Shown: piece by piece, positions 9,172 to 60,540 of the stretch
How the letters are laid out: the number at the start of each line of letters is the position of its first letter
Position numbering within the stretch: the stretch's first letter is position 1
Position numbers and translations under genes: made by a program
Notes under the pieces: generated by a model
What the model was told of the DNA's origin: nothing
What the model saw: the letters and a program-made list of their open reading frames with translations, nothing else
Database searches by the model: none
Assembly (NCBI GenBank): GCA_051546255.1
Contig: CP128817.1
Span: 124,001 to 188,000 of the forward strand
DNA length: 64,000 nt
Reading direction: 5' to 3'
Source of the DNA: Meyerozyma guilliermondii
Taxonomy: Eukaryota

Positions 9172-9342
9172 CAAAGTACACAAGAAATTCCACCACACAT
9201 GGAGCTTATAAATTGGAGCCGTACGGCTCCTTATCTCGGCGCGCCGCAGACTGTGTGGTAAGAAATCGAAAGTTCGCACCAAAGTTGTGGAGTGTGGTGC
9301 ACCGAGGGCCGTCACTGAGGTAGCGCGGGCAGTGTGTGCCTG

Positions 9343-27471: not shown

Positions 27472-27842
27472 TGACATAATCGATCTGGTTATGTAAGCGC
27501 ATCTACAACACCCATGCATGGATTATCTGGCTTATCTGCAGTCTCTCATAATGAGTAATTTAGACTAACAGTGATGCACTATGGTGGTAAATGAGCACCC
27601 TTCCAGCTACTTATACGCAGTTTGTCGCTCGATCTTTAGGACAATGATGAGCTCGATATACAGGAAGAGAACGACATCGTTTGAAACTATCCATGTAAAC
27701 AACCTTATAGATTCTGAGTCCTTACACTAAGCGCTTATGTCAGTGATATACACGAGGCGGCGCATGAGTAGAAATTACTCATTCTTCCAAATGCGGAATC
27801 TGGGGCAGGCACGGCTCCTTTTTTCGGTCGCATATATATTTA
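27472..27842 (+). promoter_or_regulatory. bZIP-site-rich promoter and TATA-like element of the bZIP gene
   Basis: TGACATAA 27472, TTATGTAA 27489, ATGAGTAA 27551, TTATGTCA 27735, ATGAGTA-n5-TACTCAT 27764-27782, ATATATATTTA about 27832. Confidence 0.5.
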
Positions 27843-28008
27843 GCTAATCTCCCCCTGATGCGACATAAAAATTTTTAACTTTCTCCACTATCAAACCTGA
27901 GGGATCTCTAGGTGATTTGATAGTTTTATTTTAGTTTTCCGTCCGTACTAAAGCGCCGATAAGACTACTTTTCTCGGCGCCCTACAAGAAAACCTCTATT
28001 TCAGAACA

Positions 28009-28086
28009 ATGGCAGTCACACAATTCGTATCTGCTTACGTACCAAGAATGCTTTACGCAGAGTTTGGGGCAGGACGGCAACTTTAA
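28009..28086 (+). other. 25-codon upstream/overlapping ORF (MAVTQFVSAYVPRMLYAEFGAGRQL) ending CTT-TAA
   Basis: AACAATGG context; overlaps the bZIP frame, which is +1 relative to it. Confidence 0.6.
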
Positions 28087-28801
28087 GTTTAGTTCTGGTC
28101 CCACGGAAAATTTTCCGTTTGATTTAACTTGTGATAATTATGTTAACGGTGGCCACGATTTAAGTTTTGGTCACGGCTATGGTTCGGTTTACTCGTTTGG
28201 GGGTAGCGATGGATCCAGCAGTGTTTCGGAAGGACAAGGTGGAAGTGTTGAGGGGGGGAGTGTTGAAGGAGGAAGTGAATTTGAAACTGTCAAGGGAGGT
28301 GGTTCTTTCGAAACTGGCCTTTCTTTGGTTGGTCCAAAGGGTCTTTCTAATGACACTTCTTTCAATTCTTCCGGTTCTTTCGGCGGTTCCCTGAGCTCAA
28401 TCAACTCTGCTGGTGTGGCTTCTGGCTCACTTACTCCTGAGCTGGACTCCAATTCTCAGTCTCAGTTGGTGTGGGTGGACCATTCGCACGACGCTCTGGC
28501 TGCGAAAACTGCGGTGGATGAAGTTGGCAGTGTTCGCAAACGGCTCGAAAAAAGAAAACGTCGCAATGCGCCGAAATCCTCGCCTGTAGAAGTCTCGTCG
28601 GTGACTAAGCGCACCAGAAATACTTTGGCTGCGCGCCGGTATCGGCAAAGACGACAGGAAGAGGTGGAGATTCTCGACACTAAAGTTCGAGAACTCGAAC
28701 TGGAGCTTGCAAAGGCGAAACTCGAAGCCAAGTGGTGGCAGATGGAGTCGCAGCGATGGAAGGAGATGGCGAAGAAAGGGGAGAATGAGGGAACCGAATA
28801 G
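28009..28801 (+). CDS. bZIP transcription factor, JlbA/IDI-4 (Gcn4-related) type; start mechanism unresolved
   Basis: Basic region KRTRNTLAARRYRQRR plus zipper heptads; frame open 27935-28801 but its only Met codons lie after the bZIP. Confidence 0.78.
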
Positions 28802-32386: not shown

Positions 32387-33232
32387 TCAGTCGTATAACA
32401 TTCTGTGGATGTGATCGTCCTTAAATGAATCCAAATTGTCAAGATTTTTCCACCACGTAAAAAGAAGTGTACTGCAGATAAGCTTGAACCATGGAGTGAA
32501 TACTAACGATTCGTCGTTGAACATTTCGTGCAATTCCTCGGCACTTACGTACTTGTAGTCCTTGACCTCGTTGTAGTTGGCTTCGATTTTGGGATTTTTG
32601 GTTTTCAAGATTAAAATGTAGTCGATTTCATGTTCTCCCCATTTAGACTTCTCATCTCCACTGGCTGATTTGTAATGAATTCTCGTCAAAAATTGGAAAT
32701 CTTCAATAGGTGCATCCTCGGCTGGAATCCCCAATTCGTGCTCGAGTTTACGCTGGGCTGCTATCTTGGCTCCAGCTACAGCGTTGTCCAAAGTTTTGCA
32801 GTCTCCGCCGGCAGAAATGCCCAATTCTCCCGCCACACATAACGGATGAGAGCAGCATGTGTTTGTCCACATAGCAGGGAAAGTAATTTTCTCGTCTGCA
32901 CGTTGTTGCAACAAAAGTTTCCCTTCTTCGTTAAACAAAAAAACCGAAAATGCTCTGTGGAGAAGACCTTGGTTGATATTATCCATTAAATGGCATAGTT
33001 TCTTAGTTCCAGCACCCAAAGGAGTGTCGTCGTAGTCTAGAACAATGCATAACTCGTCCATAAGACGAATTTGTTCTTCGTCATGGCCGGCAAAAACCGC
33101 ATCTGAGCCGTTGGACGAGTCGGAACTGGCCGATGTGGGGACCCCTGAAATCTTCTTCAAGGGTGTGATTTCAGGCCACGTTTGTAACACCTTTTCAGGT
33201 GTCAAACTCTTCACAAGCTGGTCGTACGACAT
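32387..33232 (-). CDS. IDI1: Isopentenyl-diphosphate isomerase type 1
   Basis: LLHRAFSVFLF, WTNTCCSHPL, WGEHEIDY, FTPWF. Confidence 0.97.
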   Translation of the reverse strand: MSYDQLVKSLTPEKVLQTWPEITPLKKISGVPTSASSDSSNGSDAVFAGHDEEQIRLMDELCIVLDYDDTPLGAGTKKLCHLMDNINQGLLHRAFSVFLFNEEGKLLLQQRADEKITFPAMWTNTCCSHPLCVAGELGISAGGDCKTLDNAVAGAKIAAQRKLEHELGIPAEDAPIEDFQFLTRIHYKSASGDEKSKWGEHEIDYILILKTKNPKIEANYNEVKDYKYVSAEELHEMFNDESLVFTPWFKLICSTLLFTWWKNLDNLDSFKDDHIHRMLYD

Positions 33233-47131: not shown

Positions 47132-47254
47132 CGTGCGGTCGCACTCGTTAGCAGCGAAGTTAATCCAGATAGAGTGCAAGTGCACCGGTGCACCGGTGCT
47201 GGCGACTGCGCGGCGGCGATAGATTTTGCCATCCCCACAAGTATTTGCCTCCAC

Positions 47255-59981: not shown

Positions 59982-60540
59982 ATGGTAAGTAGCCACGCAC
60001 TCGAGGAAAGTGGCTGGTGTACATGAAGGATGCAACGTAATATGAGAATTTACCAAATTGAATTCTTGTGGCTCAAATAGAGACGAAATGGTGAAATTGG
60101 GAGGAGTGAAGACCGTGAAAAAGTTGAAAGAGAGGGAATTGGAAACAGGGTGCAACAGAAGAGCTCTGAGCGTGGTAGACTTTTGAACAGTCGCGTTCAC
60201 TGTCCTGATTTACGTTTTCAATCCCTTTCCTCTTCAAATTACCGAAGCATAAAGACTGAACTTTGAGATTATTTCAATGGCTGACTTTCATTCAACTCCA
60301 ACTTGACCTTAATCTTTGTCGCTTTCCACAACTCCAAACAGCTCAAACATACTAACACAGTTATCTGGTCTTTTTCAGAGAAATTCCATTTTCGTCGCTA
60401 CCATCTTTGCTGGTGCATTCGCTTTCGAATCGTCGTTTGACGTTGCTGTGACCAAGTGGTACGAGAATCACAACAAAGGAAAGTTGTGGAAAGACGTCAA
60501 AGGCAAGTTCATTGAGGGAGGCGATGACGACGACGAGTAG
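59982..60540 (+). CDS. QCR9: Cytochrome bc1 subunit 9; join(59982..59984,60361..60540)
   Basis: ATG then GTAAGT; TACTAACACAG; exon 2 FQRNSIFVATIFAGAF...WYENHNKGKLWKD. Confidence 0.93.
59985..60360 (+). other. Spliceosomal intron in QCR9 (376 nt)
   Basis: GTAAGT / TACTAAC / CAG directly after the start codon. Confidence 0.85.

Follow-up and report, generated by a model that had tools for sequence, protein, structure and literature searches.

This report concerns a gene for a basic leucine zipper (bZIP) protein in the yeast Meyerozyma guilliermondii whose open reading frame (ORF) has no usable AUG start codon. The gene is located on the forward strand of contig CP128817.1, within a stretch of 64,000 nucleotides (nt; positions 124,001 to 188,000) that is called the window here and is numbered from its first letter. 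Judged from the sequence, the gene is real, and its expression must use a non-standard translational route. With a confidence a little above even, we propose that the bZIP frame is read through non-AUG initiation that is gated by a conserved, overlapping upstream open reading frame (uORF). The first-pass annotation of this DNA had given its headline to a +1 ribosomal frameshift at a CTT-TAA sequence and had named a near-cognate start with a repressive overlapping uORF among the alternatives. The latter is now the best supported explanation, by the layout of the whole family and by the accessible passages of publications on the fungal factors IDI-4 and ZIP-1. What is remarkable about the locus is a real, conserved gene without a start codon; the CTT-stop sequence and a nearby palindrome are, each taken alone, ordinary.

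The open bZIP frame runs from 27935 to 28801 (+ strand) and is composed of 288 codons from stop to stop, with the terminal stop at 28799-28801. Its only in-frame ATGs are found at 28742 and 28766. Both are 3' of the domain, which is matched by Pfam bZIP_1 and bZIP_2 at residues 225-266 (nt 28607-28732), and the absence of a usable AUG is confirmed by the position of the first of them behind this match. Upstream, ATG 28009 and ATG 28048 lie in frame +2 (equal to -1 relative to the bZIP frame) and share a 25-codon ORF, ORF1 (28009..28086, +). ATG 28009 has the context agaacaATGg, with A at -3 and G at +4, and ATG 28048 also has A at -3. ORF1 ends in CAA CTT TAA G, where the CTT is at 28081 and the stop at 28084-86. 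A +1 step at the CTT would enter the bZIP frame at AAG 28085 and give a product of 25 + 238 = 263 amino acids. The coordinates given in the first-pass annotation for the frame, the ATGs, ORF1, the CTT-TAA, the near-cognate codons, and the palindrome were all reproduced from the sequence.

Several near-cognate codons are in place in the bZIP frame. ATT 27998..28000 (+) is 11 nt 5' of ATG 28009 and has a poor context, with T at -3. Four more are found 3' of ATG 28009 (28031..28066, +): CTG 28031, ACG 28037, ACG 28055, and TTG 28064, the last of which has A at -3 and G at +4. ATA 27959 and AAG 27986 are likewise in this frame. Farther downstream, 28140-28566 (+) contains seven ATGs 3' of ORF1 in frame +1 of the bZIP ORF and none in the bZIP frame itself; one of the seven opens a 71-codon ORF (ATG 28179 to the stop at 28392-28394).

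From its sequence, the product is predicted to be a small transcription factor with a C-terminal bZIP domain and to belong to a GCN4-related fungal family. The conserved C-terminal region (28532..28798, +) is composed of VRKRLEKRKRR, the basic region KRTRNTLAARRYRQRR, the zipper, and a WWQMExxRW tail. The closest solved structure to the basic region is GCN4. A large protein collection yielded 15 homologues (P0002-P0016), and a profile search against 1.84 billion representatives returned 84 matches, 30 of them with E<1e-10. The family is small, and every organism named by a source is fungal. When the homologues are aligned, the bZIP part and VRKRLEKRKRR are unchanged and the middle of the protein has diverged. 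The basic-region motif K-R-x-R-N-T-x-A-A-R-R-Y-R-Q-(R/K) is invariant in the 15 homologues and is also common to the related loci L002-L024 described below. CTG codons occur in the bZIP frame at 28031, 28391, 28442, 28496, and 28700. Two of these five (residues 170 and 256) align with Ser or polar residues in relatives, which is compatible with CTG being read as Ser; the CTG at residue 188 aligns with Met.

The lack of an AUG is shared with the closest relatives. P0002, P0003, and P0004 (97%, 91%, and 86% identical, all from other assemblies) begin with M(G/R)QDGNFKF, which corresponds to TTG 28064 of the window. This TTG is the first ATG, GTG, or TTG of the window's bZIP frame and is read as M by a prokaryote-type gene caller; since all three proteins were called from it, an in-frame ATG farther upstream seems to be lacking in each of them. 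Over the first 50 residues that follow the TTG, the close relatives are the same, while the middle of the protein differs. The absence of AUG is an inherited trait of the family, and the main ORF is one whose AUG was lost or was never present. The nearest named relative is P0005, a hypothetical protein of Meyerozyma sp. JA9, which has an ordinary M start aligned near 28091. Names from any source were available for only 3 of the 15 homologues, and the others are from assemblies without annotation, which is what one would expect if genes lacking an AUG are passed over by eukaryotic gene finders. No DNA of a relative was recovered by a metagenome scan with P0002 as query or by a scan of genome contigs.

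The shared TTG call speaks against both an assembly error and a recent decay. An error of 1 nt (or 4 nt) in assembly or sequencing between 28011 and 28045 could mask an ordinary ATG-initiated ORF, and the frame of ATG 28009 and the bZIP frame are indeed one base apart. This explanation, also raised by the first-pass annotation, is rejected as highly improbable: all three close relatives start at the same TTG and not at an upstream ATG, and the identical out-of-frame relation is found in 13 unrelated metagenome contigs. A gene in decay or disabled not long ago, in which the start codon was lost and a remnant frame persists without protein expression, would account for the absence of AUG, for the weak coding signal upstream of 28064, and for the ordinary M start of the Meyerozyma sp. 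JA9 protein. It is nonetheless very unlikely. At least 245 codons have been kept free of stops in four sequences whose identity goes as low as 86%; neither the bZIP part nor the first 50 residues that follow the TTG have changed, in contrast to the variable middle of the protein; promoter blocks are conserved; and the AUG-less layout recurs in a distant yeast and in loci of filamentous fungi.

These distant loci were recovered by a metagenome scan with alignment of homologues, which gave 24 related loci (L001-L024). Locus L013 is a copy of L012 and was omitted, so the family is counted as the window and 23 loci (24 sequences). L001 is on a yeast-like contig; it is taken as an orthologue because it shares two promoter blocks and a TATA run with the window. 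The bZIP frame of L001 opens at 291, and no ATG of that frame precedes the domain. Counting the window, L001, and nine further loci, 11 of the 24 sequences lack an in-frame ATG ahead of the domain; in the remaining sequences the first in-frame ATG is inside the open frame, mostly far in.

The first ATG within the open bZIP frame is in frame +2 in the window and in 13 loci (L001, L002, L005, L006, L008, L010, L014, L017, L018, L020, L021, L022, and L024), which is 14 of 14 sequences. The ORF opened by this ATG is 20-33 codons long, apart from L005 (60) and L010 (66). By comparison, the out-of-frame ATGs downstream of ORF1 in the same 14 sequences are divided into 75 in frame +1 and 10 in frame +2 (10/85, ~12%). 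The agreement of all 14 is far from chance, even if they are counted as ~10-12 lineages. Other loci do not enter this count. L003, L004, and L023 are truncated at the contig end, and in L003 and L004 frame +2 reads without interruption from the edge up to the stop that their relatives share. The first 400 nt of L011 and L012 are free of ATGs in all frames; in L007, L009, and L015 the open stretch ahead of the domain is only 102-336 nt long and contains no ATG; and in L016 and L019 an in-frame ATG comes first.

The conserved ATG appears in the bZIP frame as xxA TGG (Trp) or xxA TGY (Cys). Because the bZIP-frame residue alternates between Trp and Cys, it is the ATG itself that is conserved and not the residue. 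What this layout amounts to is an ORF1 that overlaps the 5' end of the main frame, opened by an AUG whose frame and position are kept in all 14 sequences, as would be anticipated for a gating uORF. A strictly conserved out-of-frame AUG only a few bases behind a weak start was not described in the literature listings and selected passages that were searched.

Near-cognate codons are found at a similar place in the family, 2-5 codons before the xxA-TGG/TGC. They are exactly three codons before the TGG or TGC in L017 (CTG), L022 (CTG), L024 (TTG), L021 (GTG), and L020 (ATC). L006 has ATT ATA upstream of the conserved ATG, and ATT 27998 of the window is four codons before it. In L001, an ATA five codons before is the sole near-cognate between the in-frame stop and the ATG. 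A TTG is common to L002 and L008, and an ATT further upstream is common to L005 and L010. For a conserved near-cognate of the IDI-4 type, ATT 27998, CTG 28031, and the others are present in the window, and the family comparison is one among distant loci.

Between L002 (62-161) and L008 (13-112), ~50 nt before the out-of-frame ATG are identical, including the in-frame TAG and the TTG, while the downstream coding sequence differs. This stretch may be a conserved leader element.

Taken together with published cases, these features suggest the following mechanism. Initiation in the bZIP frame would occur at a weak near-cognate, with ATT 27998 favoured as the nearest upstream of the first AUG; this preference is by analogy of arrangement. 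Eleven bases after the ATT, AUG 28009 in its good context would open ORF1, whose 25 codons are in another frame. This uORF runs across the beginning of the main ORF and would take up most scanning ribosomes, so that the output of the factor would be low and set by start-codon stringency and initiation-factor status. CTG 28031, ACG 28037/28055, and TTG 28064 are possible starts through leaky scanning. The strict frame relation simply follows if the main start is upstream of the AUG, for the AUG is then inside the coding sequence, and for this reason ATT 27998 is preferred over CTG 28031 or TTG 28064. The excess of frame +1 ATGs downstream of ORF1, in the window and in its relatives, would impede leaky scanning to internal starts.

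A similarity in the bZIP frame itself extends upstream of the ORF1 stop. The residues LTYQEC (28034-28051) resemble the N-terminus MFQLS(S/Y)QEC of eight relatives (P0007-P0013 and P0138); the best of these comparisons has p 0.002 and the other seven 0.04-0.4, against p>=0.16 for the two alternative frames. In addition, when L001 is compared with P0153 (62% identical), the best-conserved N-terminal block is WPDLT(D/E)R(L/V)DY, which is in the bZIP frame, shows conservative changes, and begins 11 codons 5' of the L001 ORF1 stop.

A number of observations weigh against near-cognate initiation under a gating uORF. The poor context of the ATT and the A at -3 of both ATGs imply that initiation at the ATT, or arrival at the near-cognates farther downstream, would be confined to very few ribosomes. 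When L002 and L008 are compared, substitutions by codon position number 9, 6, and 11 in the overlap and 38, 18, and 82 downstream, and the pattern of the overlap is too flat to distinguish which frame is translated there. The 5' peptides of the window and L001 show no significant likeness in either frame (p ~0.9), so that the equivalence of the ATT with the ATA of L001 is one of arrangement. Codon usage over 28009-28083 scores +2.6 bits for the ORF1 frame and -2.2 bits for the bZIP frame, which is a weak signal from 25 codons; the ORF1 frame is mildly preferred up to ~28063, and the log-odds are only a few bits. ORF1 is also longer than codon shuffles predict (combined p ~0.02), which also fits a frameshift. 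This value is a Fisher combination of 12 of 13 shuffle values, from which L008 was omitted as a near-duplicate of L002. Finally, ORF1 ends in NTT TAA within an F-(N/K)-(F/L) motif in the window, L001, L004, L005, and L010. In the window, the CTT TAA (28081..28086, +) is inside the bZIP-frame motif N-F-K-F; L001 has TTT TAA C, and L004, L005, and L010 have GTT TAA T within F-N-L or F-N-F.

Sites of +1 frameshifting are well known from antizyme (OAZ1) and prfB and from the CUU-AGG/AGU sequences of Ty1, EST3, and ABP140. In a programmed +1 frameshift of the present gene, ribosomes would start at AUG 28009, translate ORF1, slip at CUU-UAA-G, and continue from AAG 28085 to make the 263-amino-acid factor; we regard this as unlikely. 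The slip could take the form of a peptidyl-tRNA-Leu moving onto UUU or of a skipped first base of the stop, and the whole would serve as an antizyme/prfB-like sensor. The layout fits, with a strong first AUG and a short ORF1 followed by a long AUG-less ORF in the +1 frame, and so does the frame relation that is identical in all 14 sequences against a base rate of 12%. The ORF1 end is consistent with it in its NTT TAA form, which is CTT in the window, TTT in L001, and GTT in L004/L005/L010. In L005 and L010, ORF1 extends over 60-66 codons before it meets a stop (P 0.004-0.12), and codon usage is mildly on the side of ORF1 up to ~28063.

The first-pass annotation had proposed a comparison of orthologues. 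Among the related loci, the ORF1 AUG and the +1 offset are kept in all 14 sequences in which an out-of-frame ATG comes first, but the CTT-stop is not conserved. The last codon of ORF1 varies, with 10 different codons in 14 sequences (CTT, TTT, GTT, AAC, GAG, TGG, TGT, ACA, or CAC, among others, followed by TAA or TGA). Of the 5166 stops in the six frames of the window, 110 (2.1%) have a CTT directly before them. A +1-frame ORF2 without AUG is present, whereas neither a conserved shift codon nor a stimulatory element was found. No stable RNA structure is predicted 3' of the stop (fold z -0.21 vs shuffles). UAA-G is an efficient terminator context in yeast, which counts against a slip at this stop. 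Amino-acid composition largely accounts for why ORF1 stays open and why it ends at the first acidic motif: Q, S, P, T, and A abound in the leader, and a stop in the +2 frame arises only where a T precedes AAx or GAx. For ORF1 openness, shuffles within the region gave P 0.02-0.69.

The position of protein conservation in L001 also argues against the frameshift; the substitution pattern in the overlap is flat. In L001 against P0153, conservation in the bZIP frame starts 11 codons 5' of the ORF1 stop, and the LTYQEC of the window, which resembles the N-termini of relatives, is upstream of the slip site. L017 has FSSGPAE (cf. FSSGPTE in the window) 13 codons before its own ORF1 stop, a likeness that is not significant alone. 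In L011, L012, and L015 a shift would lack its starting point, as no ATG is available in any of the frames. With the varying last codon, the missing structure, and the L001 conservation upstream of the stop, the headline of the first-pass annotation is left unsupported. An extension of it, that the whole family, IDI-4 and ZIP-1 included, is made by an antizyme-like +1 frameshift from ORF1 and that the published CUG start is a misreading, is a long shot. If true, it would be the first transcription-factor family under programmed +1 frameshifting, from yeasts to filamentous fungi.

The palindrome that had been noted just downstream of the stop is a perfect 16-nt palindrome at 28103-28118 (+) and encodes T-E-N-F-P. 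It was considered as a frameshift stimulator and dropped, because such palindromes occur at chance level and this one is missing from L001. The window contains six perfect 16-nt palindromes against a mean of 1.1 in block shuffles, and at least one was present in 62 of 100 shuffles. The one at 28103-28118 is probably incidental. Five further 16-nt palindromes are found at 9215, 13226, 29853, 47183, and 62106. The palindrome at 47182 extends to 18 nt, within GTGCACCGGTGCACCGGTGC.

Splicing offers another way to connect ATG 28009 with the bZIP frame, either through the 34-nt GTATCT..GCAG stretch at 28027-28060 named in the first-pass annotation or through an unseen upstream exon. Excision of the 34 nt would restore the frame, and yeast introns are often directly behind the ATG, as are both clear introns of this window: that of RPL35 (27210 to 27031, 180 nt, - strand) and a second one at 59985-60360 (376 nt, + strand). 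Both of these, however, carry GTATGT or GTAAGT, TACTAAC, and YAG. No GTA(T/A)GT is found within 27500-28250, and the sole TACTAA-like word there (27946) has no 5' site upstream. The 34-nt stretch has no branch site, is far shorter than the window introns, and has no counterpart in L001, and its removal would delete the QEC codons that resemble those of relatives. An intron of either kind is hardly credible, and the 34-nt proposal was rejected. Unconventional splicing of the Ire1 type was dropped by eye for the same stretch: the gene is not HAC1-like, and the loop consensus does not fit.

The region upstream of the gene contains conserved blocks in the alignment with L001. The first, ATTACTCATTCTTCCAAA (27774..27791, +; L001 113-130), has 18 invariant columns and includes TTACTCA, which we take to be a hybrid AP-1/Gcn4-like bZIP site. 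Gcn4-type regulation or auto-regulation could act through this block. The second, GCAGG.ACGGCTCC, is at 27805..27818 (+) and at ~147-160 in L001. A TATA-like run, CATATATATTT (27831..27841, +), is found ~170 nt 5' of ATG 28009, and L001 has TATATAAG at the matching place. The position of the transcription start would follow from this run.

Near the bZIP gene is IDI1 (32390-33232, - strand), for which one match is 100% identical and the others are at most 80%. The named IDI1 relatives, at most 76% identical, are from CTG-clade and other budding yeasts.

The gene matters in three respects. Gene finders that depend on ATG miss the factor, and many yeast annotations probably lack this conserved regulator. 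Competition between a weak codon and an AUG would be a simple switch, and this switch could couple the level of a stress-type bZIP protein to initiation stringency or eIF2 status. The gene also offers a clean either/or contrast with +1 frameshifting in a genetically tractable yeast.

The arrangement can be compared with several known systems. Like antizyme, prfB, and Ty1, the gene has a short, AUG-initiated ORF1 that ends at a stop and a long AUG-less ORF2 in the +1 frame, and as in the sites of the Ty1/EST3 type, a P-site CUU could re-pair with UUU. It differs from antizyme and prfB in that no conserved shift codon and no stimulator are seen and in that the L001 conservation crosses the supposed site. 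Mammalian ATF4 uORF2 and C/EBP alpha/beta are similar in another way, since their output is set by an out-of-frame uORF that overlaps the beginning of a bZIP ORF. In those genes the main starts are AUGs and reinitiation is involved, whereas here a non-AUG start would be upstream of the uORF AUG or within the uORF. The adjacent weak and strong start codons of C/EBP are described, in the accessible passages of PMC5487733, as a switch that is responsive to initiation factors.

Neurospora cpc-1, the GCN4 homologue, is a closer case. Conserved in-frame near-cognates are found upstream of its main start and are overlapped by an AUG-initiated uORF2 in the -1 frame, as reported in passages of the work done by Ivanov et al. 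(PMC5487733). The same passages considered +1 frameshifting possible for cpc-1 uORF2, which is a precedent for raising that option here. They also state that no such near-cognate extensions occur in the Saccharomycotina GCN4 homologues. The present gene shares with cpc-1 a bZIP factor, upstream near-cognates, and an overlapping AUG uORF in the -1 frame. The difference is that cpc-1 has a normal main AUG and its near-cognate form is only an extension, while here there is no AUG.

The closest likeness is to IDI-4, ZIP-1, and JlbA. A CUG, also kept in N. crassa, is the proposed start of Podospora anserina IDI-4 (PMC5487733, in part). N. crassa ZIP-1 (NCU08055) is described in an available passage as having a 'poor CUG start codon' and as being controlled through eIF2alpha phosphorylation (PMC10241597). 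For Aspergillus jlbA, translational regulation in endoplasmic reticulum stress is mentioned in the accessible part of PMC3943501. IDI-4/JlbA was reported in filamentous fungi only, with 0 copies in S. cerevisiae and S. pombe, according to the consulted portion of a 2005 survey (PMC1325252). ESM Atlas and protein searches for a named IDI-4-type sequence returned only generic fungal, 'hypothetical', or unnamed bZIP clusters. As far as these searches and partial sources show, the kind is already known from IDI-4 and ZIP-1, and a yeast member with its conserved AUG partner is apparently undescribed. The present gene is from a budding yeast of the CTG-clade neighbourhood, its near-cognate before the AUG is ATT where theirs is CTG, and it has the WWQMExxRW tail where loci of the L017 type have a plain zipper. 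In common are a small fungal factor, a C-terminal bZIP, and a main ORF without AUG, and both L017 and L022 carry CTG-CAA-xxA-TGG/TGC, which matches the published description of the CUG start. By this analogy the gene is probably a yeast counterpart of the IDI-4/ZIP-1/JlbA kind, with orthology as a lead rather than a result.

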